IMG/VR virus record: IMGVR_UViG_3300021138_000016 | Coordinates: 14,143 to 78,142 of that record | DNA length: 64,000 bases | Strand: one strand, 5' to 3' | Source: a virus | Part shown: positions 1,187-50,402 of the stretch, piece after piece | Position numbering within the stretch: the stretch's first letter is position 1 | Layout of the letters: each line of letters begins with the position of its first letter | Made by a program: the position numbers and the translations under genes | Notes under the pieces: generated by a model | Databases searched by the model: none | The model's input: only the letters and a program-made list of their open reading frames with translations | Told to the model about the DNA's origin: nothing

Positions 1187-1371
1187 ACTATAAAAATTGT
1201 ATTTATTAAATGAGTAAAAAAGTCGTTATCTTGTTTAATTTTCTGCTTTACTTGTTCTTTCTTCCTCAATACCTTATCTACATAAACATCTTTGCTTTGT
1301 AATATCTCATCGCTTTCAACTTCAACCATTACTTTCTTTTCGCCTACTTGTATTACTATTTTATAAGTCAT
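1183..1371 (-). CDS. Hypothetical protein
   Basis: 62-aa ORF with ATGA overlaps on both sides. Confidence 0.6.
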   Translation of the reverse strand: MTYKIVIQVGEKKVMVEVESDEILQSKDVYVDKVLRKKEQVKQKIKQDNDFFTHLINTIFIV

Positions 1372-1886
1372 AATCTAGGTTTTACAATATACAATACCAA
1401 CGCAATTACTATCGCTGCAATCAATAGCCAAAAGTACAACTCCCACCTACTAGCATCTTTTTCGTTTGATGCTGCTTGTAATCGGCTATCTGTTACCGCT
1501 TGGTTAAGTATTGCTATCTGCTTATCCTTATCCTCAATTTGCGATTTAAGTATGGATAGTTGTTGATTATCTACTATCGTATCTTTATCGTGAATGTGAA
1601 TAGTATTAGTGTGGGTTATTGTAGTTGTATCGTGTATGTAATTGCCTACTGTATCATGACAAGTAACTATAGATGTATCGTGTAAATAGCTTGTATCGCT
1701 ACTATGCGATATCACCTTATTATCGCAAGGGTGTAAGCTAGTGTACACTTTCCCAACCGTATCGAATAACGGTTCTTTAGTAAGCACCTTCTGTAGTGCT
1801 GTACGGTCGGACATACAACCTATAAAAACGTTGCCCCAAATAATAAAGTTAAATAACCATAATAATATTACTGTTGATTTTTTCAT
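1368..1886 (-). CDS. Putative unimolecular spanin (u-spanin)
   Basis: N-terminal lipoprotein signal ending FIGC, Thr-rich/coiled periplasmic region, C-terminal TM (YFWLLIAAIVIALVLYIV); near the endolysin. Confidence 0.7.
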   Translation of the reverse strand: MKKSTVILLWLFNFIIWGNVFIGCMSDRTALQKVLTKEPLFDTVGKVYTSLHPCDNKVISHSSDTSYLHDTSIVTCHDTVGNYIHDTTTITHTNTIHIHDKDTIVDNQQLSILKSQIEDKDKQIAILNQAVTDSRLQAASNEKDASRWELYFWLLIAAIVIALVLYIVKPRL

Positions 1887-3290: not shown

Positions 3291-3506
3291 TTAGTCTATT
3301 TCGGGGTTTTTCCCTTTCTTCACCAACTTTCTCATTTGATACCATTTATCAATAGTAAATGCCATCGTCAATAACCCCGTACCTATGGACACATAAACAA
3401 GTACATCACTTGCTGTTATTACTCCTGCTACACCTGATAAGTTGGTAATAACCCAACCTAGTAAACTGTACTTGCTATTGGTATTAGCTTCGTTTAAATG
3501 TTCCAT
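3291..3506 (-). CDS. Holin/antiholin-like membrane protein
   Basis: Two TM-like segments and a basic C-terminal tail. Confidence 0.5.
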   Translation of the reverse strand: MEHLNEANTNSKYSLLGWVITNLSGVAGVITASDVLVYVSIGTGLLTMAFTIDKWYQMRKLVKKGKNPEID

Positions 3507-3750: not shown

Positions 3751-4707
3751 TTAGTAGACTTTATAAAAGTTATTTACATTTCCTCCTATTGCAGTAGCGT
3801 TTGATATTTGATTGCTTTGCCATACTACAACTTCTTGGAAATATTCTGTACTGAAATTAGCTATTGCATTATCAGTTCCTAGTGCTATTGTTCCACCACC
3901 TGTTGATACATTTGCGGTATTATTTACAGTTATGGGAGCATTTGAACCGTTTAACTTCAAGGCATTTTCAGTACTATTTAATGAGCCAAACCAAATATTT
4001 TGAGAGTTATTAGTATAAATATGTGTTGGAGTTAATAATCTAGGGTTATTTGATGAAGGATAGCCATTGCCAAACATTAGAGTTCCACCTCCAACCCAAT
4101 CTTGGTAATTATTTTGAGCAGATGATATAAAAGATTTGAAACCTGTGCTTGGTGGATTTATACCAATAGAAAATTGATAATTATAACTATAAAACGCCCC
4201 TGTACTCCATTTATTAAACATTACACTACTAAAGGATAAAGATGTTGCAAAAGAACTAAAGCTTGTAGTTGATAATAAATAATTAGTTGAACCGTTAAAT
4301 ACCGCACAAACATTCCCATTTGTGTAGTTAATAACACCAGAAACAACTAGACTAGGTTGCGCTGTGGCTGTACTTTGCGATACATCATAGCCGCCGCCGC
4401 TTTGGTCATACCAAGTAGTTATAAAGCCGTTATTAACCCCAACGAAAGTCTTTAATGTGGCTGTGTCTAAATAGTTGTTTACAAAGCCGATATTACTTTC
4501 GGTGTTATCACTACTACGGCGAACTCTAATACAGTTACCTGCATAAGTACTTGATAGCTTTCTGAATGAGTAAGCAAAGCCTGTCGTTGGGTATAAGTCT
4601 AGTAAGAAAGAGTATTGGCTTAACGGCACATAATAACGGCTAGCATTGATTATTTGCCCTTTGCCAACAGTAGCAACTAATAGTAATATGATTAATAACC
4701 TATACAC
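3751..4707 (-). CDS. Signal-peptide-bearing lectin-like/receptor-binding protein (arabinofuranosidase-B-catalytic/ConA-like fold)
   Basis: YSFRKLSSTYAGNCIRVRRSSDN...GFITTWYDQSG motif; N-terminus MYRLLIILLLVATVGKG|Q. Confidence 0.65.
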   Translation of the reverse strand: MYRLLIILLLVATVGKGQIINASRYYVPLSQYSFLLDLYPTTGFAYSFRKLSSTYAGNCIRVRRSSDNTESNIGFVNNYLDTATLKTFVGVNNGFITTWYDQSGGGYDVSQSTATAQPSLVVSGVINYTNGNVCAVFNGSTNYLLSTTSFSSFATSLSFSSVMFNKWSTGAFYSYNYQFSIGINPPSTGFKSFISSAQNNYQDWVGGGTLMFGNGYPSSNNPRLLTPTHIYTNNSQNIWFGSLNSTENALKLNGSNAPITVNNTANVSTGGGTIALGTDNAIANFSTEYFQEVVVWQSNQISNATAIGGNVNNFYKVY

Positions 4708-7051
4708 GCTTCTTATATCCGATTAATGTTAAAGTAAAATAGGTAGGCTTAGTCGTAACTTTTGGTGTTTTAACCCACACCCAAGTATTAGGGGGTATTT
4801 TCATATTATCAAAGCTAGTAACACTATTTAGCCCATACAGACTGCTTATCGTACTTCCTGCTGTCACTAACTTATATCCGCCTGTTGTTTCAACTAATAA
4901 ACTATCATTTACCCATACAGTTGCTAACACACTAGCCGATGTCCCTTGCACCCCTCCTTGTATTCTTGTTATCACTAAAGTATCAGTTCCACTATTGAAG
5001 AATGAGCCATATACTGCCGATGTGCTGAATGCTGCCGTGTCCCCTGCCGCTGCTGAACCTGCACCAAAAGAAACTAATGTAATAGTGTCTGTGTTTAGTG
5101 TAACTGTTGATGGTAAATCTGCTGCTGTCGCTGCACTAACATTACCACTACCGTCCGCCTTTAATATCCCCGTTACACTACCTGCACCGCCTTTAGTACT
5201 GCCTATTACTGACCCGTTCCATGTAGCGTTGGTTATACTTGCCGCCCCTAGATTAAAAGTGTTTGTACTCCAACTTACCGCCGAAGGTGCGCTAAAATGA
5301 TAATCCCATGTACCCGCTGAACTGCCATTGCTTACCAATACAACATAGGCATAACCGCCCGAAGGGATGGATAAAACAGTTGTTCCAGAGTTATTGTTTA
5401 CGGTTACTGCTCCACTAGACTGATTGTTATTGAAACTAAAAGTACACCCATTGGGCAAAGTAGTTGCATCAGGTAACTGCACAACCTGCCCACCTGACCC
5501 TGTTATGTAATAGTTGGGGGTAGATAAAACGGTTAAAGTTATCTGTGTGCCGCTTGCCGCTACGTTACTAAAACCGCTATAAAACGTATTCGCCGCTACA
5601 TTACCACACGCTGTATCTACTGTTACACCGTTGGTATATCCCACATGGTTTGTGCCATTCCAATAAGTTAGGGGTACTTTCGAAGATGTGATAGTTGGGG
5701 AGTTGCCTGTGATGCTACCTGTGCCTTTGTTAGCGTTGAAGTAAGTAGGGGTAATGTATAAACTACTATCTTTTGCCATTAAGACTTGCCTAAAATATTG
5801 CCCCGAACCTATTTGAGCAAATAAACTACCATTATGAGTGCCTATCAAATTATAAGCAACGTTTCTGTTGGTGTCGGGCAATGATAAGTAATTAATAGGA
5901 TATATCGCACCTCCTGTTATGGCTGCGCTACTCGATGCGGTTACGTCACCTGCAAAATCAAAAGAAACGCCACTATTACTTAATGTGCCTGTTTTGCCGA
6001 AAGTCCAATAGTTAGTATTGTTATTCATTATTTTCAAGTCGTTATTATCCGTAGTACCCAATGTTGCAGTTGTGCCGAATGAGTTGCCGCCTTGTGAGAA
6101 ATAATTAGAAGCGTTTAAACTATCTTTAGGAACGTTACCGATTGCAACCAATAATGAACCGTTTGTATTATTAGCGGTTACTATACCTATTCTCATTGCA
6201 GGGTATAATGTAGAGGGGGTTGGTGATATTCCCCCGTTATCGCCTAGATAAACGTTTTGTCCTGCATTGTATATGCTTAAATTAAGCCCCGTTACTATCC
6301 CCCCGTTATAAACTATTCTTCCATATCCATTATTAGGGATGGAATCTAAAGATATTGCAAAAGGGGGGTATCTAGGATTACTACCTTTTGCTATTGCTAT
6401 ACTAGATGTTGAATCAAGGCAAACGGGTGTTAGTGGGGAAATCCCCGTCCCCGTATTTTTGGGACTAGCCCCTACTGTACTTAACCTACTTGAATTGCCA
6501 AGACTATCTATGTAGTAGGGTTCTGTAAAGCCATTATTAGTCTTTGAATAAACCGATATTCCGACACTAGGATTAGAAGGGTCTGTACTTAGTGGGGTAT
6601 AATTATTTTTGGTTGTTTTACCTATGTAATAATATGTCGTACCGCTAGGTGTATCTATTGAAAGATTTGCAGTATAGCTTAATGAATGAACACCATTATA
6701 AAATGGTATGTCTTGAATAACACCATTTCCCGTTATTACGTTAGAAGGTAGTGAGCCTAACTTAAAAGCATACCAATTGTCATTTATTAAAGTAGTTGAT
6801 TTTAATTGATAGGTAGTGTCTGTGTTTTTAACATAAACTAACATACCGTATTTTCTTTCTGCAAAGGGGATTGAATCCCTTTGACCCGTTGTTACTAATA
6901 CTCTGTAACCCCCTTTTACTAAACTATCGTATGTTACGCAGTAGTTTGTATCTGCTATTGCATTAGTAGATATTGGTGCTGTTATTTTTGTATTTTGGGC
7001 ATTAGCGTACCCTATTAATCCTAAAAACAATATAATAAATATCTTTCTCAT
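4700..7051 (-). CDS. Tail fibre-like protein with Sec signal peptide
   Basis: G/S/T/N-rich mosaic fibre-like sequence; N-terminus MRKIFIILFLGLIGYANA|Q; many D(S/T) motifs. Confidence 0.7.
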   Translation of the reverse strand: MRKIFIILFLGLIGYANAQNTKITAPISTNAIADTNYCVTYDSLVKGGYRVLVTTGQRDSIPFAERKYGMLVYVKNTDTTYQLKSTTLINDNWYAFKLGSLPSNVITGNGVIQDIPFYNGVHSLSYTANLSIDTPSGTTYYYIGKTTKNNYTPLSTDPSNPSVGISVYSKTNNGFTEPYYIDSLGNSSRLSTVGASPKNTGTGISPLTPVCLDSTSSIAIAKGSNPRYPPFAISLDSIPNNGYGRIVYNGGIVTGLNLSIYNAGQNVYLGDNGGISPTPSTLYPAMRIGIVTANNTNGSLLVAIGNVPKDSLNASNYFSQGGNSFGTTATLGTTDNNDLKIMNNNTNYWTFGKTGTLSNSGVSFDFAGDVTASSSAAITGGAIYPINYLSLPDTNRNVAYNLIGTHNGSLFAQIGSGQYFRQVLMAKDSSLYITPTYFNANKGTGSITGNSPTITSSKVPLTYWNGTNHVGYTNGVTVDTACGNVAANTFYSGFSNVAASGTQITLTVLSTPNYYITGSGGQVVQLPDATTLPNGCTFSFNNNQSSGAVTVNNNSGTTVLSIPSGGYAYVVLVSNGSSAGTWDYHFSAPSAVSWSTNTFNLGAASITNATWNGSVIGSTKGGAGSVTGILKADGSGNVSAATAADLPSTVTLNTDTITLVSFGAGSAAAGDTAAFSTSAVYGSFFNSGTDTLVITRIQGGVQGTSASVLATVWVNDSLLVETTGGYKLVTAGSTISSLYGLNSVTSFDNMKIPPNTWVWVKTPKVTTKPTYFTLTLIGYKKRV

Positions 7052-7058
7052 TTATACT

Positions 7059-8039
7059 TTAATAATGTAATGAATAACTTATAGCCCCTGTTGTCGTAAG
7101 AGGGGAAACTAATACTGTGTAATTAGCAATACCCCCACTTTGATTTGTGAAACTATTATATGGATTAGATATGTATGATACTTGAAGACCCCCTATATAT
7201 ACTAAAGGAGTTGTGATAGTAGATAGGAAAGCAAAAAAAACATACTTTGGACTTGAAGGGGCAGCTAAATTGCCTATCAACGGTGTGTTAAATATCGTAT
7301 TGCCCGTTGTATTTAAAAATGAATTTGCACCTGCATATAATTCAGAAGGTGTTGGCGTAGATGTAGAAGAATACCCTATATATATCTTGCTATAAGCATT
7401 AAAACTTGTTGTTGCTGTTGCTGATTTTCCGTCTGTAGTTAAAACAACGTTACTAAATGAAGTATTAGTATTATATGTTACTGTTACCCTTTGTGTGTCA
7501 CTGATTGTACAAGGGGGGGATGAACACCCTGTTGTTGATTTGCTAACCCCTGCTACTGTAATAGATGCAAAAGGGGATGTTGCTGCCACGTTTGTTCCTG
7601 CGGCTAACCTTCCTGCTGAATAATTTAAAGTAGGAGTGAATGTCCCCGCACTATGTAGTTCGTAATTACTTCCCCCCGTCAAAGTAGCAGTAGGGTTTTG
7701 TGTTTGTATCTTTACATACCCCAATAAGGTATCATTAAGTGCTGTATGGGTTACAAATAGGCTACTATCTACTGTTGATGAGTTTCGTTTCCATCCGAAA
7801 CCATTCCAAAACCATTTTGCTGTATCCACCCCTGCATTTGCAAAAATTATTTCTGTACCATAATAACGGGCTTTCATATTTGTATCCGTCCTTACTGCGG
7901 GGATATAGCCACTATCTGATTTTAAAAAAGCGTATTTTATCCAACTTGTAGAATTGGTTACGGGATTACCTTGTGGGAGTGATTGTGAAAATCCCCCTAA
8001 GACAAAAAAACAAGATATAAAACTAATTACTAATCGCAT
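7059..8039 (-). CDS. Fibre-like protein with Sec signal peptide
   Basis: N-terminus MRLVISFISCFFVLGGFS|Q; Thr/Ser-rich, beta-rich body. Confidence 0.6.
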   Translation of the reverse strand: MRLVISFISCFFVLGGFSQSLPQGNPVTNSTSWIKYAFLKSDSGYIPAVRTDTNMKARYYGTEIIFANAGVDTAKWFWNGFGWKRNSSTVDSSLFVTHTALNDTLLGYVKIQTQNPTATLTGGSNYELHSAGTFTPTLNYSAGRLAAGTNVAATSPFASITVAGVSKSTTGCSSPPCTISDTQRVTVTYNTNTSFSNVVLTTDGKSATATTSFNAYSKIYIGYSSTSTPTPSELYAGANSFLNTTGNTIFNTPLIGNLAAPSSPKYVFFAFLSTITTPLVYIGGLQVSYISNPYNSFTNQSGGIANYTVLVSPLTTTGAISYSLHY

Positions 8040-8511
8040 AATTTATCATTACTTTCATTCCATATTGTAATCCCAAGTTTTCTGTTGGGTTGTCAATGGA
8101 ATAGTTAAAGAAGTTTATTGTTACTGTATTGTTAGTGCCATATACTATTGTAATGTATATTTGATTCGTTACTGCTACGGGGTATATTGGTGTCCCTTCT
8201 ATTATTACTTTTACTGATTGTGGTATTATATTCTGTACGGGGTTATCTACTTCTTGACCTATTACATAAGTTACATCGCCACTATTCAAAACCCCGTCTA
8301 CGCCAACTATTGTATTCAATTCGGGAAATGTTATTGAAGAAATACAAGAAAGAATGTTTGATATACTTCTTAAAGCGTACATCCCTGCCCCTGCACCGCC
8401 TACCGCTCCACTAACAAGTATCATCTCACTTGGAGATGGGCATCCCGTTAGTACGGGCAACTGATTTATTTCAACAGAACATCCTGCCATTAGTTTAAAA
8501 GTAGGGCGCAT
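8023..8511 (-). CDS. Putative structural protein (fibre attachment/tail hub)
   Basis: Beta-rich, immediately upstream of the fibre genes, no signal peptide. Confidence 0.45.
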   Translation of the reverse strand: MRPTFKLMAGCSVEINQLPVLTGCPSPSEMILVSGAVGGAGAGMYALRSISNILSCISSITFPELNTIVGVDGVLNSGDVTYVIGQEVDNPVQNIIPQSVKVIIEGTPIYPVAVTNQIYITIVYGTNNTVTINFFNYSIDNPTENLGLQYGMKVMINYAISN

Positions 8512-8810
8512 CCATTTATTGTGGCTACGCAGTTATTGATTAATAAAGAACAAAATCCACTACAAGGGGCGCATATTGCATCTTTATAGGTGACAAAGTT
8601 AAGGAAAGAATTGAATTGTCGTGTACCAAATATATCTTCCCCCACTTTTACTAAAAAAACATTGGTTGCAACTATATCATCATTTATTGTATAACCCCTT
8701 ACAACAGAGTTACCAATAGGGGTTACAGAATAACAAGGCAATGATAATACTATGGGAAATTCTTGTATCGCCCCATTAACTGTATCTGCTATGATTTCTA
8801 TGTACTGCAT
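8490..8810 (-). CDS. Putative structural protein with Cys-rich C-terminus
   Basis: 106 aa ending CAPCSGFCSLLINNCVATINGC. Confidence 0.5.
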   Translation of the reverse strand: MQYIEIIADTVNGAIQEFPIVLSLPCYSVTPIGNSVVRGYTINDDIVATNVFLVKVGEDIFGTRQFNSFLNFVTYKDAICAPCSGFCSLLINNCVATINGCALLLN

Positions 8811-8814
8811 TGGT

Positions 8815-10095
8815 TTATATAAATCTTATTCCGTTTTTCGATAAATTCTGTAATGCTTCTTTTGCTTCTTCTATACAATCAGTATTTATCTTTAAATCAT
8901 GCCCTTTTACTGTTTTTGCTATTTCTACTGCCATTTTAATTGCAGACTCCATAGAGTTACCTAATCCTATAACCGCACCGACCTCGCACATTTCAATATT
9001 GTTAGGAACATAGTAATGTGTACCATCTTCTTCTACTACTAAATTCTTAATCTTTACGTTATTTTTATACTCTATTGGGAACTGAATTGCTATTGGCTCT
9101 GTTTTAGCTAATTCAGACTTCATAATTAATTCGCAGCCCCAAAGATACTTATATTTTATGTTTGGAACAATACCGTTTGCAACTTCCCATATTATTTCAG
9201 AATAATTTTCATATTGTTCTAATGTTATAGAAGTATTGGGTTCGGGAAATCTTAATGTCGGGTCAATAAAATACCCCACCTTGTTTTCATCAACCCTTAT
9301 TTCTGTACTAAATGCAGCCCTATAACCTTTACTTTGTAGTATTGGTGCAAATTTGTCATTTACTTCCCTTACTTGTTTAGGTAGCATTTCATACCTAGTC
9401 ATTTTGCTAACAGCGCACGCATCTTTTATCTCTAAGCAACAACTACTTTCTTTTGGGTATTCCCCGTCCACAGAAAAGCCATCGTAGCCTATTTCTCCGA
9501 TAGCATCTACGGGGTCGCAAATCAAGTAAGTTTCATCATTTGCATAAGTTCCCATATCGTGTTTAAGCCTTTTTAACTCTGTTTGTGTAAGCGTATAATT
9601 AACATGATGAAAAGTTTCGAGGTCGCCACGAAGGCTTGCTTTGATGTATTTATCTTCTACTCTTTTCAACTTATACTCTAACTCGTCTAGCCCATTTGCT
9701 ACATCATAAGTTAGTGTAGGCAATCCTAAGTCACTAACTAATTCTAAAAATTCCTTTCTATTGCTTTCTAATTCACTTGCAGTACCCCCACCAAAAACGG
9801 GTTTGCCTATCCCTCTAAGATATTCTTGCAATCCCCCCATGTATATGTCTGTAAATACAAATAAATCTATCTCTCTAATATATTGCCACCAATCATCTAC
9901 TCTTTCTACCCCTTCAACTCCTCTACCTATTGAATGTGCTTTATGGTCTTTAAATCCATTTGTTACAGATGGGATATAATACAATACTCTTTTATAGTCT
10001 CTAGCCAACCTTTCAGCAACGGCAAACTGACTGCCAAAATCGAAAACCAAAACGGTCATTTCGCTTAGTCCATATTTATCATATACCTTATCCAT
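8815..10095 (-). CDS. PurD/GARS-like ATP-grasp ligase
   Basis: FGGGTASELESNR..LGLPT, IDPTLRFPEP (compare PurD EFNxRFGDP) and a GARS_C-like VIGLGNSMESAIKMA. Lacks the GSGGREH loop. Confidence 0.75.
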   Translation of the reverse strand: MDKVYDKYGLSEMTVLVFDFGSQFAVAERLARDYKRVLYYIPSVTNGFKDHKAHSIGRGVEGVERVDDWWQYIREIDLFVFTDIYMGGLQEYLRGIGKPVFGGGTASELESNRKEFLELVSDLGLPTLTYDVANGLDELEYKLKRVEDKYIKASLRGDLETFHHVNYTLTQTELKRLKHDMGTYANDETYLICDPVDAIGEIGYDGFSVDGEYPKESSCCLEIKDACAVSKMTRYEMLPKQVREVNDKFAPILQSKGYRAAFSTEIRVDENKVGYFIDPTLRFPEPNTSITLEQYENYSEIIWEVANGIVPNIKYKYLWGCELIMKSELAKTEPIAIQFPIEYKNNVKIKNLVVEEDGTHYYVPNNIEMCEVGAVIGLGNSMESAIKMAVEIAKTVKGHDLKINTDCIEEAKEALQNLSKNGIRFI

Positions 10096-10104
10096 TATTT
10101 ATGT

Positions 10105-10497
10105 TTAAAGTGATTCTATTAAGTTGGAATATTCAATCCAATCAACCCCACATTCTGCTGCTAAAAGCATTTCTATTGCTGTACTTTGCAAGTGCTGTTT
10201 TCGGTAAGGGGCGTTGTGTCTAAATCCGTTTTCAATATCATCTGTCATTGTACCAATTTCTTTTGCTTTTTCACAATAGGCATCCCAATCTGTTATTTCT
10301 TTTTCGCTGATATTATTAGCCTCGCAAGTAAGCACTTCGAATAATTCGTGAATAGCAATTAATGATTCTTTCTTTTTATCCCCCAACTCTGCAACTAAGA
10401 TGTTCAAAACGCCATTTGCATCATAGAAATAATCGCCCACGTCATTATTTCTGATTTTGCTTTTATCTACTGACTTAATATGTATTTCTAGTGCCAT
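10105..10497 (-). CDS. Small protein with HExxE metal-binding motif (zincin-like candidate)
   Basis: VGDY...IAIHELFE...APYRKQH...AIE...GVDW. Confidence 0.55.
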   Translation of the reverse strand: MALEIHIKSVDKSKIRNNDVGDYFYDANGVLNILVAELGDKKKESLIAIHELFEVLTCEANNISEKEITDWDAYCEKAKEIGTMTDDIENGFRHNAPYRKQHLQSTAIEMLLAAECGVDWIEYSNLIESL

Positions 10498-10521: not shown

Positions 10522-13500
10522 TTATTGTTCTGTTGATGGTTCAAATCCCTTCCCGCTTGGATGCTTCTCGTTGTTTTTGTAAAAACTTTTTATATCTTTA
10601 TCCAATTGTTCATCAATATGTTTTTTCTTTTCTTCCTTTTGTTCTTCACTAAGGGACTTGTTTGTTTCTACTTCTCCTTTTCTGTGTTTTGCAGACTTTA
10701 CTGCGTTTGTTGCTTTTTTATACCAAAACTCGGACAATAATTCTTTTTTATTCCCTATACCTACCCATTTAACGTAATCTTCGGGTGTAAAGGTAACTCT
10801 TTTTATGTCATTCCCCTTTTCATCTACATCATTAATTTTATAAGGCGGCAATAGCCTTTGCGAAAGCGGGTCAAACACCCATTTTTGTCCCCTTTCTAAT
10901 TGTGGTGAACTTTCAATAAGATGTTCCACATTTGACACTACCGCATCTTTTGCCGCTGCTGCCGATATTTCTCCACGTTTAATTTTATCTTTATACACAT
11001 CTGCCGCATCTAAAGCCATCATTGCAGGATAGAAAGCGGGGGTATGTTCTATTACCATAGACACCCATTTAGGTAAAGTATAATTACCGATACGAATATC
11101 CCCCGTTTTTGTTTCGGGTTCTTTTGTCTTTTTTTGCCTTCTTTCTTTCTCCTTATCTTCTGCTGATTGACCTAGATGTGGGAATCCACCAAATGAAGCC
11201 CCGAAATACATTGACCCAATAGAAGCTAAAGCAAACATCCCTAACCCAAATCCCCCCTTTCTAAAAGCCCTTGCTATGGTTGCAGCTTCTTTAGCGGGGA
11301 TTTCATTTAATCGTTCCCTTAATGCTGTTTTAAATTCTTCTGAATCCCTATCAGTATATCCTAAATCAAACGCTTCGCCTTTAGCTTGTCTATATGCCTT
11401 ATTCATTTTATATACTGCAATAACAGACCCTGCCGTGTATTCCATAACTAACTCTTTTAGCATATTGTTAGGTACACGGGTAATTGCTACATCTAGTCTT
11501 AATGCCGCCGCTACTGTGGGGTATTTTTTTTCTATATTAGTTAATGTATCGTTCCAAAATCTTGTTACCGCATTATCTTCTGAATATTTACCACGTTCCC
11601 AATCGGGATAACTGTCATAGGCTATTTCTAATATTTTATTTGAATCTATTGGCATCCCTGCTTCTATATTCCCTTCTAATCTTGCAATAAATCCTGCCGC
11701 AAATTCAGAACGTGCAGAAAATGTTTTTAAAGCCCCGTGAAGCCTTCCCATCACACCAACTAAATGTTCTATTGATTGTACAGATACTAATTGGTTTTGC
11801 CAATCGCTTCTTTCTTCATTCAATTCGCCAAATTCTTTTTCTATTTTATTTACCCTATGTAAAAAAGTTTCATAAGCATCTTCAAAAGAACGTCCTGCAA
11901 TAAACTCATATACCATATTGCCCAAGTCCTCTACCATAGCTTTGCCGTAATCTACTTTTAACTTGTCTACCTCTGTTTTTTTAGAATCATACTCTTTAGA
12001 CTTTGATAAAGGGATTTCATCTAATTCTTTTTTGGCATCTAAATATTTACCTTCCGCTAGTTTAAACTTTTCCCTAGATTTTTCGTATAAGTTAGCTAAT
12101 CCCTTCTCACCATATTGCATCCAAACAGCTTGTTGCAGTTTCTTTAGTGTTTCTATGGAATTGCTTTCGCCACCTAGCTTTGCATTTTTAGAAATAGCCT
12201 TTGTTGTTTCAAATGGAAGTGCATCAAATATTTTACCCGTAGTAAGTTTTGTTAATGCGTTTAATTGGGGTTTTATCCCTGCCGAAAATGCCACTTTCAA
12301 CAAAGTTTTCCAACTATGTATAAGAAAAGCCACATTCAACCCTCTTGCCAATACTCCTGCCGCCCTCCATTGCCAATTTTTACCTTTGTTTTGTGAGGCT
12401 GCTTTTTCTTTAGACAATTCAAATGCTTGTTTCTTTAATCTTCTTTGATTTTCAAGCCTAATCAAGTCTGCATCGTATTGGGTAAATGGTTCTGTCTTTT
12501 TAGGCTCATCATCAAATTCCCCTGCATTTATTTTTCTTTCATACTCATTAATATCTGATTGAAACTTACGTTTGGTTTTTTCTAACTTAATAGTAAGTTC
12601 ATCTTTCTTTTTATCTTCTTCATAGTTATCTAATATAGACTTTGCTTTTAACCTATTCTCATAATCTTTAGCATCTTTAAATACATCCAAAGCGTTTTTC
12701 ATAGCTTTTTCTGCTGCTTTAAATTTAGGTTCTTCGCTTGTCCCATCTAAATAAACTTTTGACTTCTCAAGTTCATCTATTGCATTTTCAAGCATAGACT
12801 TTTGCCTATTAAAATTTTTGTCAGTAGTGTCCCCTATTTCTTCAATCTTGTTTTTAAAATCTTTTATTGCGTCATCTACTCTTTGATTATGACTTGATGC
12901 ACGAGTTTCATAAGAAGCCCTTGTAGTGCTATCTGTATGACTTACTTTCAACTCCTTCTTCCTTAGTGAATCAGCTAATTCTTTTTGTTTTTTAACTAAG
13001 TCCTTATCTATTTGTTTAGGGGATTTATTACGGTTCTTTTTAAAATATTCCCCACTTTCATTAACTCTTTTTATCTGTTTGTCATAATCCTCTATCTGTT
13101 CATTTTTGCGATTTATATCCCTCTGAATCTTCTTTAATTCGTTTTCTTTATCACGCAATTCTTTGTCAGCAACTTTTACTGATTCTTTTAATGCTTCTAT
13201 TTCGGGAGTATCTATTTTTTCGTTGGATTTAGCCCTTTTTTCACGAATACCTTGTTGCAACTTATCCCTTTTATCGGTAAGTTCTTTTATTGCCCTTTCT
13301 TGTCTTTTTGCTTCATTTTCTTTATCACGCAATTCTTTTCTTGCTGCCGCTGCCTTTTCACGTCTATCTTTTAATATGGCTTCCTTTTCAGCAATAAGAC
13401 CCTTTTCATATTCGTCACGTTCTCTTTGTGATTCAAATTGTTTTCCCTTAATATCCTTTAACTCCTTCAAGTCATTAATGTCATTTTCTAATTTAGTAAT

Positions 13501-21914: not shown

Positions 21915-22709
21915 TTAATTTGTTACTTGTTTCCATCCGAACCCAGCTGCACTATATCCCTTGCCATTAACCACTCTTGCAATACTCTTCGTATCTAATC
22001 CAAGACTTTTTGCTGCGTGAGATATACTTGTATAATAAGATATAACTACATTTGTTTTTAAATCAAATTGACATACTTTTTTATGTTGAGAAATATTAGA
22101 TTTGCCATCTTTAAATTTCCAAACATATCCCGCACAAGTTTTACTGATACCATTTACTGCATTTTTTATAGCAGTTCTTTTTAATCCATTTTCATTTGCG
22201 GCATCTACCGTACTAGGGTACTCTTTTATAAAGTCACCATTGGTATCATACTGCAATATTGCTCTTTGAGATGCCTCTTTACACTTTAATAAAGTTTCCT
22301 TAGAAGGTTTTACTCTTGCATTATTTACGCTAACCCTATTTCTTGATTCGATAGATAACGACTTCCCAATATTGGATAATGATATTTTTTCTGTCATATC
22401 TTTACTCCTAATCTCTTTTAATTCTCCATATTTAGGCAAAATAGAATTTAAACCTAATTCTAAATCTAATACATTATATAACAACCCAAATTCTCTTTCT
22501 TTTAAAAATCTAATAGAAACATCTCCTTCCCATACTATTTCTGTTTTGTGATTATTATAACCATAAGCAAAAATGCTATTATATAGCTTTAATTGAAATT
22601 TGCAATTACCGTTTTTATAATAGTTCAATCTTCGCTCAAAATTTAAGGTAGAGCCAATATAAACTTGCCCAATAGGATTCGTTATTTTATATACAAATGC
22701 TTTACCCAT
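21915..22709 (-). CDS. GIY-YIG homing endonuclease with NUMOD1-type DNA-binding repeats
   Basis: VYKITNPIGQVYIGST. Two C-terminal repeats: ILQYDTNGDFIKEYPS..AA..CAGYVWK and VCQFD..YYTSISHAA..AAGFGWK. Confidence 0.85.
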   Translation of the reverse strand: MGKAFVYKITNPIGQVYIGSTLNFERRLNYYKNGNCKFQLKLYNSIFAYGYNNHKTEIVWEGDVSIRFLKEREFGLLYNVLDLELGLNSILPKYGELKEIRSKDMTEKISLSNIGKSLSIESRNRVSVNNARVKPSKETLLKCKEASQRAILQYDTNGDFIKEYPSTVDAANENGLKRTAIKNAVNGISKTCAGYVWKFKDGKSNISQHKKVCQFDLKTNVVISYYTSISHAAKSLGLDTKSIARVVNGKGYSAAGFGWKQVTN

Positions 22710-30050: not shown

Positions 30051-30413
30051 TTAAAGGCTTTTGTAAACAAAGTAATTCACCGATACTAAAATAAAAATAT
30101 CCCAAATCCAAACCCATATTTCTATTGTATGAAACCCAAATACAGAAACAACCGTTCCCCAATAAGTTATAGACCCCCAAACAGATGCCATACACTTAAC
30201 ACATCCCCACAAAGGCAATGTCCAATTATTGCCCCTATACTTTTCAAAGAATGAAGGGTTTAGTTTATAAAATATGTTTCCACTACAAATATTCCCCTTA
30301 TTAATATCATTTACACAACCACCTTTAAATGCTTCATAAACACCATTTATAGCTAAAGACTGTAAATAAGTAAAAAGAAGAAAAGATAATATGTATAAAA
30401 AAAGTGTACCCAT
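30051..30413 (-). CDS. Membrane protein with CxxC (DUF1360-like)
   Basis: Three hydrophobic segments; GCVKCMASVWG. Confidence 0.6.
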   Translation of the reverse strand: MGTLFLYILSFLLFTYLQSLAINGVYEAFKGGCVNDINKGNICSGNIFYKLNPSFFEKYRGNNWTLPLWGCVKCMASVWGSITYWGTVVSVFGFHTIEIWVWIWDIFILVSVNYFVYKSL

Positions 30414-31196: not shown

Positions 31197-32282
31197 TTAA
31201 CAAGATAATCCCGTGTTGTTGCCTATTAATCCTGTTGATGGATTGATGCTGTAAATACTTCCCCCTACGCCTGTTGTAACACCTAAGAACCCTGTAACGG
31301 GAACTGTCAATGCGTTATCGTAATATAAAGTAACACCCGTAGCAATAGGTTTTGAAGAATACAATGTAATTGGGGTTTGTCCACAAACAGTATAGATAGT
31401 ACTTCCTAAAAGATAACTTCTACTGTAAACAGAACTAAATTGTGAAGCATAGAACGTTTGTACCAAGTTATTTAGTGTCGCCGCTAAATTTATATTAAAC
31501 GCTGATTGAGAAGTGCTTGAAGGGTATGTAGTTGTATTTACATTGTGATTATAGTCTATTGTCTGTAATGATATAGATTGCCCTATTGTAACTTCCAATG
31601 CGGTCAAAGAACATATATAATTTATAATTGCTTGCAATACCGCTACCAAACTTGTGCTTGTGCTTTGGAAAGGTACAGTCATTGGGCTACCATTAACAAT
31701 CAGAACTACCGATACGGGGTTGTTTGCATTGCCATTTGTTAGAATATTAAAATAGCCCCCACTTGTACTATTTGAATAACTTGTTTGGTATGTGCCAAGT
31801 CCTAAACCATTTAGCCAAGCCAATATGTCAGACGAATCTGAAACTAAATAAGGTGTTGGTGCTGTATGTGTCGTTGCCCCAATTAATATGCTTTGTATTT
31901 GCGCTGCATTACTAGGTACTGATTGTGATAAGAAGTAATTAGTAGAAGATAGGTTTATAACACATCCCCCGTTAAGATTAGCAAGGTTTATAGCATTTGA
32001 TTGTGTTACCAATGCGTTTAATTGCGCTTCCAAAACCCCTGTTGTATCTGCCGCTATTGCAGCAAGGATATAAGATGCCAATTTTGTATAATTCCAAGAA
32101 ATAAGGTATTGTACATTATTTGGGATTGCGGTATTTAGTGTTATCTCAAATGCCAAATCGCTATTGTTAGCTTTCGCCACTTGATACGAACTAGATTGTA
32201 TCTCAAATTGGGTAGTACTACCTACTGGTTCACTTGTAACGGTTGTAGCCCCTGCACCTATGATATTTACATTTTGTGGCAT
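31197..32282 (-). CDS. Putative head fibre/structural protein
   Basis: Ser/Thr/Asn-rich; C-terminal GVTLYYDNALTVP beta module. Confidence 0.5.
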   Translation of the reverse strand: MPQNVNIIGAGATTVTSEPVGSTTQFEIQSSSYQVAKANNSDLAFEITLNTAIPNNVQYLISWNYTKLASYILAAIAADTTGVLEAQLNALVTQSNAINLANLNGGCVINLSSTNYFLSQSVPSNAAQIQSILIGATTHTAPTPYLVSDSSDILAWLNGLGLGTYQTSYSNSTSGGYFNILTNGNANNPVSVVLIVNGSPMTVPFQSTSTSLVAVLQAIINYICSLTALEVTIGQSISLQTIDYNHNVNTTTYPSSTSQSAFNINLAATLNNLVQTFYASQFSSVYSRSYLLGSTIYTVCGQTPITLYSSKPIATGVTLYYDNALTVPVTGFLGVTTGVGGSIYSINPSTGLIGNNTGLSC

Positions 32283-42065: not shown

Positions 42066-44090
42066 TTATTTATTTCTTGGGGGGTTTATTTCCATCATTA
42101 TTTGCATCATTGTTCTAGTACTATTGTCTGTAAGATTTGTTTCTTGTATCTGCTTTAATCCATACTCTAACATTACCTCTGACATTGTTATGTGGGATTC
42201 CTCTGTATTGCTCAAATCGAAATTCTTTTTATCTTCCAAACCTTCTTCAAAAGGGTATTGTTCTAGTTGGTCTATGTCGTTGGGGGATTTTGGTATATCA
42301 AACCTAGTCACCAACATTTGCAATCCATTTTCAGTTGTCTTTGGGGTTGTCCACATTCCCCACTTCTTATCTGTTTCACTTTTCAATAAAAAGTTAGACA
42401 TATTTTCTTCTTCAAATACTTCTTCTGTTGATTCTACCTGTCTTTCTGCCATTACGGGGTATCCCCAAAACTTACAAGCCTTAACGCACTCTTTATGTGC
42501 TATTTTAGGGTCACTTGGACGTTGTAAATATAAGGCACAATATTTATTTGCATTACCACTACCAAAATAATCAAATTTTTGATACACGACTATTGATGCT
42601 TTAGATAGTTTTTTACTGATAGTGTTATCGGTCTTATATCTTATAGGGTCATATCCTATACAACCTTCGGGGTTTATTGGGGGATAGTAAGTACCTTCAC
42701 TACGTCTGAACCTATTTCTTGTATCAATGTTTTTTTCTGTATCAAAGTATGGCATAACGGCAACTAACCAAGCCCCTTCATCGTTCTGTTCAAACCAAAC
42801 CTTGCCTTGTTTATCTTCTACCAAATCCCCTTTAACATAAGGCTTTTGGTCTATTGGGAGTGCGTAAAGATGATTTAACCTTTCGTCAAAACGCATTACC
42901 GAGAAGTAGGTTTTGTCATTTGCCGACATTAACCCGTGTTCTTCTTTTAGTGGCATACGCCTTAACTCAAATACATATTGCTTACTATCTTTTGCGTATT
43001 TGTTTGCTTGCGCCCATACATAAGCCTCACAAGCATCTTTGTTTACTTTGCCAAATCTGGTATAAACAGGGTCACGAACCTTATCGGGGATGTCGGCAGA
43101 GTGTATTGCACTAACGAACCATTTGTATAACCCACTTGTTGTACGGTTATTAGCATCCCTTACAAGGGGATTACTTTCCATATACATCTTACACCCTTCC
43201 TTTACGGCGTTTAATTGGTTGTCACTATCTCCCATTGTAGAAAGAACATCTATCTTACCTTTTATGCCATATTCTACTACACACTTTTTATTAATGTCTA
43301 GTGTTTCCATTGTAGAGGCGGTTGTCCACTTAAAGGCTTCGTCCTGTACTATAAATCTCTTTTTTGTACCATCCATTGCTGATGCTACTGTTGGATAAGC
43401 CCTTGCAGTTCCCCCTAAGTAAGTATTGTTTTCATCACTATCCTCATCTTTAAGAACATTGCAAGTTAATTCTATCCCGTTACGGGGTTTCTTTGATGCA
43501 GGGGTATAAATCTTTTCACGCATCCAAATAGGTCTTGCAAGATATGTTTCTATAAAAGGCAACATCAAAGTTTCCTTTACTTTTTTATCGGTATTACTTT
43601 GTAATCCAACGTGACTATTTTCATCTTCTAGTAGAGTATAAATACCTTCGCTTATTTCCTCTGACGACATACCACTACGCCTACACTTTAGAATACATTT
43701 CCCAAAACAATCTGCATCTTTTCTAACCAAGTCCCTAAAATAAAAGTCTAATCTTTGTTGGTCTAAGTAGTTGGGGTATCCGAAGTCAAACTTATTGAAA
43801 ACAAGAAAGTCATAGTGCATCCCTGTAAGGTAAACCAATTCTCCTCCTATAAGTATCCAAACCCCTTCAAGCCATCTTTTTCTATGCAAGTCTATTATTT
43901 CAATCCTTTTCTTTTCTGTCAATCTTCTTACATCGGGTATGTCGGGGCGTGTCCAAATTTGATTTTGTTTATTATAAACATCAAAGTTTATTATATCTTT
44001 TTCATCATTAGGTACAGACAAAGGGATTTCGTAGGTATATAACCCATCCATTAGTGAAACCGTATTACTATTTGTTACTTTCTTTGACAC
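42066..44090 (-). CDS. terL: Terminase large subunit
   Basis: YLTGMHY, Walker A KCRRSGMS, Walker B FIVQDEAFKW, RNase H-like CIGYDP. Confidence 0.9.
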   Translation of the reverse strand: MSKKVTNSNTVSLMDGLYTYEIPLSVPNDEKDIINFDVYNKQNQIWTRPDIPDVRRLTEKKRIEIIDLHRKRWLEGVWILIGGELVYLTGMHYDFLVFNKFDFGYPNYLDQQRLDFYFRDLVRKDADCFGKCILKCRRSGMSSEEISEGIYTLLEDENSHVGLQSNTDKKVKETLMLPFIETYLARPIWMREKIYTPASKKPRNGIELTCNVLKDEDSDENNTYLGGTARAYPTVASAMDGTKKRFIVQDEAFKWTTASTMETLDINKKCVVEYGIKGKIDVLSTMGDSDNQLNAVKEGCKMYMESNPLVRDANNRTTSGLYKWFVSAIHSADIPDKVRDPVYTRFGKVNKDACEAYVWAQANKYAKDSKQYVFELRRMPLKEEHGLMSANDKTYFSVMRFDERLNHLYALPIDQKPYVKGDLVEDKQGKVWFEQNDEGAWLVAVMPYFDTEKNIDTRNRFRRSEGTYYPPINPEGCIGYDPIRYKTDNTISKKLSKASIVVYQKFDYFGSGNANKYCALYLQRPSDPKIAHKECVKACKFWGYPVMAERQVESTEEVFEEENMSNFLLKSETDKKWGMWTTPKTTENGLQMLVTRFDIPKSPNDIDQLEQYPFEEGLEDKKNFDLSNTEESHITMSEVMLEYGLKQIQETNLTDNSTRTMMQIMMEINPPRNK

Positions 44091-44954: not shown

Positions 44955-45127
44955 TAGTTGTTAGGTTTAGTTTTCAATACTTCGTGGGGGTTGCTTGGGC
45001 AAGTACACATTTCCTTATAGAAAATAAGTTTGCCACACTCACAAGTCCTGCCATCAAACTGTAAGTCGTTTGGTTGTGGTATAACCCCATCAACCTTATG
45101 TGCATCTTTACAAGGTTTGTTATCCAT
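44954..45127 (-). CDS. 57-aa Cys-rich protein (not in ORF track)
   Basis: MDNKPCKDAHK...TCECGK...MCTCPSNPHE...NN*, overlapping both neighbouring genes. Confidence 0.65.
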   Translation of the reverse strand: MDNKPCKDAHKVDGVIPQPNDLQFDGRTCECGKLIFYKEMCTCPSNPHEVLKTKPNN

Positions 45128-46106
45128 CGCTAAAAGTGTTTAGTTGGATTTCTTTGAATTGAAACCCGTGATTAACAATAATTTTTTCTAATTGATTTAT
45201 CCTATTACTCCAAGTGTGATTTGATAGAAATAATCTATTGGTGGCTTTTGCAGCCCCCTGTACAAAAAAGTCCCTATACAAAGCAGCGTGACATATTTCA
45301 CCTAATTCTTTAAAGTTAGACCATTTGTAAATAAAATCTTCTGACAATCCTTTTATATCTTGGTGAACCGTGAATATACCACAAGCCAATGCCCTAAAAT
45401 CCCTATCACTACAATATCCTTCACGTTCAAAGTTGTTTTGGGTAAATGTTATCTTGGCTGAATTGTAACAAAGTATTTCTTCTTGTGGGTTTAGGAATCC
45501 ACCTTTTTGCCCCAACCCATAAGCCTTAAACTTGTCTCCAAATTCTTTCTCCATATACTCAATTACTTCTTGTCGTTCTTTTGACTTAGGGAAGTTTAAG
45601 TTTGAGTTTTGATAGTTACTACCTATGAATACTATTGGGGGAAAATCAAATATAGTGTTCTTGTTATTAAACTTTCGATACATTTTAGTATCACAACTTG
45701 GTTGCATATAATCAACGTTGTTAATCCCTTTTTCTTTTAGTTGTGCAACACTTTCTCTATCACAAAAAAGAATAAGATTTAAGTGTGGGGCAAGTTCTTC
45801 TATGAAGTCAATATTGTCCCTTACATCTACTGTATAAAAAAAAGTAAATCCCAACTTAGACAACTCCGATGCAGTATAACTGTCTAAAGAACCTTCGTTT
45901 TGCATTTGAATAAATATCAAATCGGGTTCTTCCATTGCTGCTTTAGCAATAAGTCGTGGGGAAACCCCCTCTATCCCTGCGTTTAGCTTTACTTTCTGCC
46001 AATCAATTTCAGAAACTTCCCATCCATTGCTTTCAAATGCTTCGCTTATCCCCGTATTTGGATATGCGGCACTTGTTTGTCTGATGTGTAATACTTTCTT
46101 TATCAT
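45120..46106 (-). CDS. Glycosyltransferase, GT-B (CgeB/Glyco_trans_1_2-like)
   Basis: VFIGSNY, YNSAKI, SDRDFRALACG, HTWSNR. Confidence 0.8.
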   Translation of the reverse strand: MIKKVLHIRQTSAAYPNTGISEAFESNGWEVSEIDWQKVKLNAGIEGVSPRLIAKAAMEEPDLIFIQMQNEGSLDSYTASELSKLGFTFFYTVDVRDNIDFIEELAPHLNLILFCDRESVAQLKEKGINNVDYMQPSCDTKMYRKFNNKNTIFDFPPIVFIGSNYQNSNLNFPKSKERQEVIEYMEKEFGDKFKAYGLGQKGGFLNPQEEILCYNSAKITFTQNNFEREGYCSDRDFRALACGIFTVHQDIKGLSEDFIYKWSNFKELGEICHAALYRDFFVQGAAKATNRLFLSNHTWSNRINQLEKIIVNHGFQFKEIQLNTFSDG

Positions 46107-46419
46107 TTGTCTTTTTTTATTGCTTTAATATGTTCCGTATAATAACTTAAAGAAAATAAAGAATGTTTTATTAATAACTTCTTACCTTCTTCCAAATATT
46201 TATCTAAGTCATTATGCCCCCACTCTTCTGGGTCAAAACTAATTCGGACTTCTTTTGTTGTTCTCTTACTTTCTTTATGTTTTATATAAAAAAATAAGCA
46301 ATCTCTCTGCCGCCAGAACTAATAAAATCGTGAACCCAATCTTTGTAAAAAAAATCTGTACCCTCAAAAGATTGTTTTAAAATACTGTCTAAATAAAGTA
46401 ATTCATTAATTTGTATCAT
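46103..46419 (-). pseudogene. ~105-aa gene interrupted by a one-base frameshift at a poly-T tract
   Basis: ATG at 46419 and TGA at 46103 both form ATGA overlaps with neighbours. The span is 317 nt; one added T at the tract near 46288-46294 restores the frame. Confidence 0.55.
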
Positions 46420-47084
46420 ATATTATTTGTTAATCGGTTAAAATTTTGTTCCATCATTATTGAAAAATCAACAACTCCCAATTCTTTATTATAAATACTA
46501 TCAAGACCTTTATGCTTTAATGGGTCGTAGTTGAATATGTCTGATTTAGTAGGTCTTTGTGTAAATATCATTGGGTTACTGCAATAACACTTGCCTAATG
46601 GCTGTATCTTTCTCATAATACTTACATCTATTGGTTGTGTTTCATCTTCCAAGAGGGGCAAGATTAGATTTATCGCTTCCTTCGAGTAAAATGTAGCGTG
46701 TAAAGCGTATGAAGCTGTTATTTTAAGTATGTTTTCAGATACTTTAGTAGGTGGAACTAATAAGTTTACCCCTAAGTGTAGGCAATGATAGTCTTTAGGG
46801 ATTTGTTGCAAACATTCTGAAATAAACCCTTCTGTACCTTCTATAAATTTAGCATCATCTTCAAATACAAGTATATTTTCATAATTCATTAGTTTGGCTA
46901 TTGAAAAAAGGCTGTGCATTGTCTTAATTAAACCAACATAACCTTCTTTGTTTCTTAAAGCATCAAACTTAACCCATTCAATCCCCAATGAATCCAATTC
47001 CTTACCCAACACATCAAGTCTATCCGACTTTCTTTCGGGCAATGAAATAATAAAAACCTTATCTACAAAATCATTAATTAGCAT
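46416..47084 (-). CDS. Glycosyltransferase family 25-like
   Basis: FIISLPERKSDR, ILVFEDDAKF, PIDV. Confidence 0.8.
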   Translation of the reverse strand: MLINDFVDKVFIISLPERKSDRLDVLGKELDSLGIEWVKFDALRNKEGYVGLIKTMHSLFSIAKLMNYENILVFEDDAKFIEGTEGFISECLQQIPKDYHCLHLGVNLLVPPTKVSENILKITASYALHATFYSKEAINLILPLLEDETQPIDVSIMRKIQPLGKCYCSNPMIFTQRPTKSDIFNYDPLKHKGLDSIYNKELGVVDFSIMMEQNFNRLTNNI

Positions 47085-48621: not shown

Positions 48622-48633
48622 TTTTTTTATTTT

Positions 48634-48834
48634 TTAATTATCAGATATTATTTCACATTGGTCTAACCTAGCATATACATAATCCCCATGTCCATGTATT
48701 TCAATTATTAAAGGACTATCTAAAAATGACATATTATTATCCAAATCTTTTACTACTATTGTGCCTTTAGGATATTTATAAATAGTCCCATAAACATCTT
48801 TTTCTATTTGTTCTTTCAAAACAAGATTTCTCAT
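48634..48834 (-). CDS. Hypothetical protein
   Basis: 66-aa ORF within the GT cluster. Confidence 0.55.
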   Translation of the reverse strand: MRNLVLKEQIEKDVYGTIYKYPKGTIVVKDLDNNMSFLDSPLIIEIHGHGDYVYARLDQCEIISDN

Positions 48835-49452
48835 TTACTTTTTAGTTATAATTATTAGTTTTTCATCTGCCTCTATTGAAACAGACTTTATTAGGTTTTG
48901 GAATACTTTACTTTCCCCATCACTAAAGAACTTGTTTTGTATTTTACCTGTTTCCAAGTAGTTTTTAAACATCCATAGTGGGGTATCTTCAAATACATTT
49001 ACTCCTTCGCCCCAATAAAATTCATCCTTGCAGCAATGGGTATCCTCTATAAAGTAAACACCGCCACTATTTAAGTTATTTACAAATAAGTGTTTAAAGG
49101 TTATTATTTGGTGGGCAGAGTTATGTGACGCATCTTCTGAAATTAATTCAAATTTTTGATGTATCCTAGATAAAGCATCTATATCTGTTTGGCTACATTG
49201 ATAAGGGACAAAAAAGTGTTCCCTACACCATCTTTGGGTAGTGTGGTTGGGGTCTAAAAACAAATCAACACAATGAATATCAACCTTGCTTTGAAAGTAA
49301 TCATTAAACATAAGCAATGATGCCCCTTTTGCAATACCAACTTCTAAATATGCTAATGTATTTTTAGGGATATATTTTTCGTAAAAAGGTAAATACCCGT
49401 GTTCTACTTTATCTGTTTTGTATCTTCTTCCAAGTGTTTCTAAATATGACAT
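48835..49452 (-). CDS. Class I SAM-dependent (sugar) O-methyltransferase
   Basis: TDK..HGY..FYE, LEVGIAKGASL, EDASH, GGVYFIED (MycE-like pattern). Confidence 0.8.
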   Translation of the reverse strand: MSYLETLGRRYKTDKVEHGYLPFYEKYIPKNTLAYLEVGIAKGASLLMFNDYFQSKVDIHCVDLFLDPNHTTQRWCREHFFVPYQCSQTDIDALSRIHQKFELISEDASHNSAHQIITFKHLFVNNLNSGGVYFIEDTHCCKDEFYWGEGVNVFEDTPLWMFKNYLETGKIQNKFFSDGESKVFQNLIKSVSIEADEKLIIITKK

Positions 49453-49455
49453 TTA

Positions 49456-50253: not shown

Positions 50254-50257
50254 TTTT

Positions 50258-50402
50258 AAAAAAAAATTTATATCCTAACCGTGTGGGGTTTGCAAAGAAA
50301 GTTATGCCTTATAGAAGGAGTAAATTCTACCACCACACGGTTACGATGTATCTAAAAACTATTTTTAATTTTAACCATAACTTTCTTTGCGCTACAAATA
50401 TA
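50258..50402 (-). promoter_or_regulatory. Promoter plus structured leader (pseudoknot/attenuator) upstream of GT11
   Basis: -7 TATATTTG at 50402-50395. Interleaved inverted repeats 50292-50306/50376-50390 (15 bp) and 50276-50286/50333-50343 (11 bp), then a T run on the minus strand. Confidence 0.65.

Follow-up and report, generated by a model that had tools for sequence, protein, structure and literature searches.

The window analysed here is a 64,000-nucleotide stretch of viral DNA, bases 14143–78142 of a single 78,142-bp phage contig (IMG/VR record IMGVR_UViG_3300021138_000016), with a G+C content of ~34%. On its minus strand lie three consecutive open reading frames (ORFs) encoding fibre-type proteins of 326, 783 and 318 amino acids (aa), each of which begins with a predicted signal peptide followed by Gln. 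The 326-aa protein (7059–8039) has its leader in residues 1–18 (nucleotides 7986–8039), ending GGFS/Q (the slash marks the cut), with Gln19 at +1. The 783-aa protein (4700–7051), a mosaic fibre protein, likewise has its leader in residues 1–18 (nucleotides 6998–7051; YANA/Q, Gln19 at +1). The 318-aa lectin-type protein (3751–4707) starts at a GTG codon, a start backed by close homologues that begin in the same way (MYKLL...); its leader occupies residues 1–17 (nucleotides 4657–4707; VGKG/Q, Gln18 at +1).

The three ORFs are co-directional and almost abutting, with junctions of −17, +7, −8 and +1 nucleotides to one another and to their neighbours. The gene for the large terminase (TerL) lies at 42066–44090, and its product is 20–25% identical to the terminases of Flavobacterium, Maribacter and Cellulophaga podophages. 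Downstream of it, on the minus strand, follow a portal-sized gene, a capsid-sized gene and genes for proteins of 1584 and 2973 aa; the three leader-bearing genes come after the 2973-aa protein and are followed, on the same strand, by small membrane ORFs. All three are tightly packed and co-oriented at the end of the tail module, the usual position of fibre genes.

The leaders have the make-up of a general secretory (Sec) signal peptide cut by signal peptidase I (SPI): one or two basic residues (MR, MRK or MYR), 11–14 hydrophobic residues, small residues at −3 and −1, and then Gln. Residues −3 to −1 are G-F-S in the 326-aa protein, A-N-A in the 783-aa protein and G-K-G in the 318-aa protein. 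We scored leaders across the entire 78,142-bp genome (111 non-overlapping ORFs) with a heuristic of our own for the n-, h- and c-regions. The three proteins scored 4.8–5.3, among the highest values, and a strong Sec-type signal with Gln at +1 was found in only 4 of the 111 ORFs, the fourth being a 234-aa Endonuclease_NS protein encoded outside the window (genome bases 11872–12576, minus strand; PF01223, E = 1e-21), whose leader ends SWG/Q. For the 326-aa protein and the nuclease, the cut first given by the heuristic was two residues away; the GFS/Q cut was taken from the conserved Gln column of the 326-aa family alignment, and the SWG/Q cut from a later run on the nuclease homologues in two related loci (L008 and L010). 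The remaining matches were one 120-aa ORF and, in the presumed lysis region, small ORFs for membrane proteins or lipoproteins. A sequence-only reading of this DNA had described three consecutive genes with a leader and then Gln, and no such leader on any other structural gene; the first statement is borne out from the ORFs themselves and the second is essentially right, the 120-aa ORF (30051–30413, minus strand) having several transmembrane-type hydrophobic segments and no basic n-region. This ORF lies inside the virion module and has no family match.

Two other destinations were considered and rejected. A lipoprotein processed by signal peptidase II is at odds with the +1 position, which is Gln and not the Cys of a lipobox in all three proteins. 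Cargo of the type IX secretion system would carry a C-terminal sorting domain of the TIGR04183 or TIGR04131 type, and neither NCBIfam nor Pfam matched such a domain in any of the three proteins or of five homologues that differ in their C-termini. With neither a type IX domain nor a lipobox, the proteins, if exported, should remain in the periplasm. It is also conceivable, though improbable, that the leaders act as uncleaved signal-anchors and keep the fibres tethered on the periplasmic side of the inner membrane, for instance on a staging platform from which proteolysis or membrane disruption at lysis would free them. The h-regions are indeed long and very hydrophobic (Kyte–Doolittle hydropathy 2.7–3.5 over 10 residues), but the small residues at −3 and −1 and the Gln at +1 are conserved over otherwise divergent leaders, which is the signature of SPI substrates in the phylum Bacteroidota (PMC5837995).

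The leader is conserved among close relatives of each protein. All 27 aligned homologues in the 326-aa family have it, nearly all with Gln at +1, and leader and Gln recur in close relatives of the 783-aa protein, both at 13 IMG/VR loci and among those signal-bearing homologues whose sequences were read. Among the best 120 relatives of the 318-aa protein, 44 have a leader with Gln and 76 have no leader; where present, the leader takes the place of a short variable N-terminus right before the conserved start of the domain (LLDxYP). Distant relatives whose similarity to the 783-aa protein is confined to its central domain all have an ordinary fibre N-terminus with no leader, as does the fibre of phage MW202753, and the Cellulophaga siphophage proteins that share its N-terminal module begin MPQE... 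without one. The leader is, as judged from these comparisons, a conserved, lineage-specific addition. The module that follows it has been exchanged between the 326-aa and 783-aa families (compare homologues P0047 and P0018).

These observations bear on a further alternative, namely that nothing is exported, the hydrophobic N-termini serving some other purpose or belonging to mis-called starts. There is no in-frame alternative start just past any of the leaders, the next Met residues being at positions 56, 70 and ~160 of the three proteins, and the leaders are kept while the mature N-termini vary among relatives. Export of the three proteins by the Sec/SPI route is likely.

The host is assigned to the Bacteroidota from the Gln-at-+1 (Q-rule) leaders, from the kinship of TerL with terminases of Flavobacterium and Cellulophaga phages, and from a single homologue found in a Ferruginibacter metagenome-assembled genome. 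In this phylum a general O-glycosylation system modifies its motif in soluble non-cytoplasmic regions of proteins; sequons in non-cytoplasmic proteins are almost fully occupied, and engineered motifs are glycosylated as well (PMC12871550). We therefore counted the sequon D-(S/T)-(A/I/L/V/M/T), with expectations from shuffled sequences (5000 shuffles for the window proteins). In the 326-aa protein, 6 of 7 Asp residues are followed by Ser or Thr (2.0 expected, p = 0.002), although the full sequons (2 versus 0.8 expected) are not significantly in excess. In the 783-aa protein, 16 of 29 are so followed (7.0 expected, p = 0.0002), and its 12 full sequons compare with 2.9 expected (~4×), a number reached by none of the 5000 shuffles. 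The 318-aa protein has no excess (1 of 7 Asp residues, 1.6 expected, p = 0.84; 1 full sequon versus 0.6 expected). In the rest of the genome, Ser or Thr follows 11.5% of Asp residues. The counts given in the sequence-only reading (6 of 7, 16 of 29 and 12 canonical sites) proved exact.

The excess extends to the families and is specific to the full motif. In 30 non-redundant leader-bearing relatives of the 783-aa protein, 278 sequons were observed and 88.8 expected (3.1×, z = 21.6). In the same proteins, D-(S/T) followed by a non-hydrophobic or other residue (0.88×), E-(S/T) followed by a hydrophobic residue (0.48×) and the reversed motif (0.65×) show no excess. The sequon stands at 2.2× in 10 other ORFs with leader and Gln, 0.97× in 210 other leader-less phage ORFs and 0.69× in 19 leader-less fibres with the same central domain. 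Because the proteins are mosaics of shared modules, the test was repeated on 40-residue windows sharing ≤15% of their 4-mers: the 783-aa family remained at 2.9× (z = 8.0), the 326-aa family went from 2.5× (z = 7.5) to 3.4× (z = 6.2), and the leader-less fibres stood at 0.94×. Three leader-less homologues in the list of 783-aa relatives (P0025, P0032 and P0034) have no sequon excess. One homologous column reads DTA or DSI in leader-bearing proteins and DSN, DAN or DSS in leader-less ones, and the sequon positions of the 783-aa protein, such as 182, 213, 310, 479 and 671, show partial conservation across the aligned homologues. Selection for the complete three-residue sequon is supported in the 326-aa and 783-aa families, and the two proteins are probably O-glycosylated, to judge from their motifs. 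The predicted enrichment over shuffled sequences and cytoplasmic ORFs is thus found in the 783-aa protein and its family and in the 326-aa family, and fails in the 318-aa protein.

The sequon excess could in principle reflect fibre structure, for example Asx turns before strands, and this would complete the no-export alternative described above. Some sites are structural, since tail proteins of Cellulophaga phages that lack a signal likewise keep RDSIP, whose letters spell a sequon. However, signal-less fibres with the same central domain are sequon-poor and the excess tracks the leader protein by protein, and together with the data on the leaders themselves this makes the absence of export highly improbable.

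The three proteins are assembled from ordinary tail-fibre modules, found in signal-less tail fibres and tail proteins, and the fibre identity that had been proposed for them holds. An AlphaFold2 (AF2) model of the 326-aa protein comprises a low-confidence stalk (residues ~21–108), which holds five of the six D-(S/T) sites, and two β-sandwich domains (residues 110–326) with predicted local distance difference test (pLDDT) values >90. Its matches in BFVD are tail fibre and tail proteins, several of them crAss-like, with E values down to 6e-12, and its look-alikes in the Atlas are likewise viral; a Foldseek search of the PDB with the same model gave generic Ig-like matches only. Members of the 326-aa family have zero or two cysteines, with one exception, which is only suggestive of disulfides, and cysteine parity in the 318-aa family is uninformative on this point.

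In the 783-aa protein, the leader is followed by an N-terminal module (residues ~42–100; 6752–6928, minus strand) with the motif RDSIP...GMLVYV and matches to PHROGs 23630 and 24134, which are families of virion proteins. The same module forms the extreme N-terminus of signal-less tail proteins of Cellulophaga siphophages (phi17:1 gp60 and gp61, and phi12:1) and of jumbo-phage fibres. The module is a candidate for tail attachment, and its position at the N-terminus of leader-less tail proteins fits a docking role. The central fibre domain (residues ~400–640; 5132–5854, minus strand) is 45–62% identical to ~50 IMG/VR fibre genes and to phage MW202753, and close homologues end in tailspike-type modules (K1-lyase_C, F5/8 and LamG). 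The AF2 monomer of this protein is poor (pLDDT 48.5), too much so to serve as a query for structure searches. Residues 34–318 of the 318-aa protein form an AbfB-like β-sandwich, with a partial match to Pfam PF09206 (E = 1.4e-7) and a match to PHROG 10356 ('virion structural protein'); the domain also occurs in a virion protein of Synechococcus phage S-CBS4 and in actinophage minor tail proteins. A GH54 α-L-arabinofuranosidase B was rejected, the PF09206 match covering only profile positions 19–92 of 315 and leaving the catalytic part unmatched, and the protein is treated as a lectin-type β-sandwich.

Similar gene blocks occur next to several kinds of tail. One to four genes with signal and Gln lie between the last tail gene and a spanin-like gene in phages of at least three tail types: the podovirus-like genome of the window, myovirus loci (L008 and L010) with sheath, tube, tape measure and two baseplate-hub genes, and a third type (L012 and L014). 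The spanin-like gene of the window (1368–1886, minus strand) has a 172-aa product that combines a lipobox-like Cys (FIGC) with a transmembrane helix at its C-terminus, features from which a unimolecular spanin is proposed; homologues of this product come after the signal-peptide fibre block in loci L008–L014. Candidates for a holin or another lysis function are four small ORFs whose translations have hydrophobic segments (1938–2138, 2135–2338, 2646–2903 and 3291–3506, minus strand). The roles given to these downstream genes (holin, endolysin, spanin) are all putative, being drawn from features only.

On balance, we favour, by a modest margin over doubt, a reading in which the three genes encode receptor-binding, fibre-type proteins that carry a Bacteroidota Sec/SPI leader, mature in the periplasm and dock at lysis. 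Late in infection, the host Sec machinery would translocate the three proteins; their leaders would be cut off before Gln, which the host would cyclize to pyroglutamate, and the proteins would fold in the periplasm. There the host general O-glycosylation system would modify the 326-aa and 783-aa proteins at D-(S/T)-hydrophobic sites, and the lack of a type IX domain would keep all three proteins in that compartment. The adjacent lysis genes would then breach the inner membrane, so that the exported proteins would meet fibre-less particles built in the cytoplasm and dock onto them through the conserved module right after the signal peptide. The data show directly the conserved signal, the sequon excess with its controls, the homology of the modules and the synteny; cleavage, glycosylation, periplasmic retention and docking at lysis are the steps that we infer. 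Joining the particle at or after lysis is plausible and somewhat better than an even prospect. Exported, matured and glycosylated periplasmic fibres were also what the sequence-only reading had proposed: Sec/SPI targeting, sequon selection in the 326-aa and 783-aa proteins and fibre identity stand; the 318-aa protein has no sequon excess.

The case for virion membership is indirect and draws on the candidate docking module behind the leader, on the synteny in several tail types and on an analogy with Cellulophaga phage phi18:3 (Pachyviridae, KC821620). Its gp085–gp087 are, as in the window, three consecutive proteins with leader and Gln (547, 785 and 559 aa; L072:2892–8584), and their genes immediately precede those for lysis. 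Their annotation as 'structural protein' derives from experimental tandem mass spectrometry (MS/MS), and they fall in tail or tail-fibre PHROGs. Phage phi18:3 is a podovirus with a ~1600-aa structural protein and a giant protein; its TerL is distantly related to that of the window, and the two phages also share a portal and a section of the large structural protein. The position of the block differs, lying upstream of the terminase in phi18:3 and after the giant protein in the window. The Pachyviridae paper makes no mention of signal peptides.

The three proteins might instead be exported, and probably glycosylated, without ever joining the particle; this is the main rival reading, and the sequence-only reading had likewise named secreted surface or decoy proteins as its alternative. 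They would then be accessory proteins derived from fibres, at work in the periplasm or, once the cell has lysed, in the surrounding medium. They could mask or destroy receptor glycans (for superinfection exclusion or for protection of progeny from debris), serve as decoys, or act as free depolymerases or lectins. The same genome exports, by prediction, at least one clearly non-structural protein behind a leader of this kind, the Endonuclease_NS; homologues of the 783-aa protein carry lectin- and lyase-type tips (F5/8, LamG and K1-lyase_C); and Q-rule genes of Porphyromonas gingivalis prophages, of unknown function, have been read as modifying the host (PMC10367356). Against such a role, the proteins retain the N-terminal module of signal-less virion tail proteins, for which a free protein would have no use. 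The loci of the myovirus type and of the third type show no further fibre-like gene in the available stretches, MS/MS detected the analogous phi18:3 proteins in particles, and no route over the outer membrane is evident. We consider an accessory role unlikely, though far from negligible.

Several points nonetheless weigh against fibres that dock at lysis, and the first two also favour the accessory role. Other signal-less Ser/Thr-rich structural ORFs (for example, 31197–32282 and that of the 1584-aa protein) could be the true receptor-binding proteins. The late genes of phage MW202828, the closest by TerL though very distant, are arranged in much the same way but lack a fibre block; the 45 kb of this phage that were read contain no ORF with signal and Gln. 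The gp085–gp087 proteins of phi18:3 have no detectable similarity to the window proteins, so that their support for virion membership is by analogy only; they are also sequon-poor (1 each versus ~3 expected), and MS/MS of purified particles can detect adherent proteins too. In the 318-aa family the sequon shows no leader-linked difference (1.24× versus 1.27×). The fibres of the cultured phages phi38:1, phi17:1 and phi12:1 and of the Flavobacterium elemo phages are signal-less, and the trait is thus not general to phages of the Flavobacteriia. The presumed lysis genes, including that of the 172-aa protein, have no Pfam, PHROG or PDB sequence match, and docking after lysis would be inefficient through dilution unless it took place in the short interval before the outer membrane breaks. 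Finally, the leader scores come from our own heuristic, and two scans of 185,579 bacterial species genomes (one with a protein query, one with a central-domain profile) found no prophage or host relatives.

Several known systems come close to this arrangement. Counterparts of single modules are found in phi17:1 gp60 and gp61 (the N-terminal module), in the MW202753 fibre (the central domain) and in actinophage AbfB-like minor tail proteins (the lectin-type domain); ordinary signal-less fibres and tail proteins of this kind have neither the leader nor the sequon excess (0.69×) and are presumed to assemble in the cytoplasm. The mosaic adhesive trimer (MAT) fibres of Bdellovibrio bacteriovorus (PMC10769870) are mosaics resembling phage tail fibres, with a signal peptide, then a conserved β-rich N-terminal domain, and variable adhesin tips. 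They differ in being cellular proteins on the predator surface, not encoded by a phage, in another phylum and without a sequon of the Bacteroidota type. Substrates of the Bacteroidota general O-glycosylation system and of the Q-rule (PMC12871550, PMC5837995 and PMC10653852) are alike in their Sec/SPI leader, Gln at +1 and sequons in soluble extracytoplasmic regions, but those described are all host proteins, and phages are not mentioned in PMC12871550 (0 occurrences). The P. gingivalis prophage genes are phage-encoded, with a predicted host Sec/SPI route and Gln at +1; they differ in that they are unknown genes likely to modify the host envelope, are not of fibre type and come without a sequon analysis in that work (PMC10367356). 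A literature search found no paper on leader-bearing tail fibres of tailed phages or on phage substrates of Bacteroidota O-glycosylation, the P. gingivalis prophage genes and the MAT fibres being the closest published cases.

To our knowledge, all parts of a tailed-phage particle are, in the textbook account, made and assembled in the cytoplasm. If the docking of exported fibres at lysis is correct, Sec-routed, SPI-trimmed and periplasm-glycosylated fibres would break this rule, the last step of assembly would be tied to lysis, and the virion component that determines host range would carry a glycan made by the host or edited by the phage. This would bear on host-range prediction, on fibre engineering and on how 'secreted' phage genes are interpreted in habitats where Bacteroidota abound. 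Phage phi18:3 and its host are both in culture, and the three signal-bearing proteins of this phage are already on record as virion proteins, which makes the matter open to a direct test. In that marine phage, export without glycosylation seems to be favoured, and the pairing of sequon-rich freshwater fibres with sequon-poor phi18:3 fibres suggests that glycosylation is selected for or against lineage by lineage.

Upstream of the terminase, the window holds a co-oriented glycosyltransferase and methyltransferase cluster (45120–51102, minus strand) with five glycosyltransferase domains and two methyltransferases (by Pfam: GT1-like, GT25, FkbM with GT47, methyltransferase, GT11 and GT2), no member of which has a signal peptide. 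Its products could possibly alter an undecaprenyl-linked glycan, perhaps one that is put on the exported fibres. The phage would then supply both halves of the system: exported, sequon-rich fibres and a cytoplasmic cluster that rebuilds the undecaprenyl-linked O-glycan of the host, giving a phage-specified sugar coat on the fibres and perhaps on host surface proteins. We regard this as a speculative and rather improbable extension; if true, the virion would be completed outside the cytoplasm with a glycan of the phage's own design.

Directly upstream of the fibre block lie two overlapping signal-less ORFs of 106 and 162 aa (8023–8810, minus strand), the second of which overlaps the start of the 326-aa gene by 17 nucleotides. 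Neither has a family match. The C-terminal 100 residues of the 162-aa ORF match 265-aa proteins encoded right before the signal-peptide fibre block in loci L009 and L011, and the two products are possible tail or docking proteins. The ORFs overlap each other by 22 nucleotides and their combined size is close to that of the ~265-aa proteins, so they may represent a split or frameshifted tail gene. Between them and the giant protein, ORFs of 426 and 130 aa (8815–10497, minus strand) have no Pfam match at the thresholds used.

Most virion genes of the window genome have no PHROG match, and no near-identical DNA was found in cultured phages. The 64-kb window has no tRNA, and sigma-70 and Bacteroidota promoter patterns are not above chance. 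Inserted among the late structural genes is a homing endonuclease of the GIY-YIG/HNH type (21915–22709, minus strand; phrog_314, E = 3e-20). In the myovirus-type relative L008, a 143-aa protein with leader and Gln (L008:1735–2166, plus strand) is encoded between a capsid-type gene and the tail sheath gene. Finally, the 234-aa Endonuclease_NS protein, a DNA/RNA non-specific endonuclease by its Pfam match and a predicted exported phage nuclease, has 3 sequons against 0.7 expected and is 99% identical in L008 and L010.

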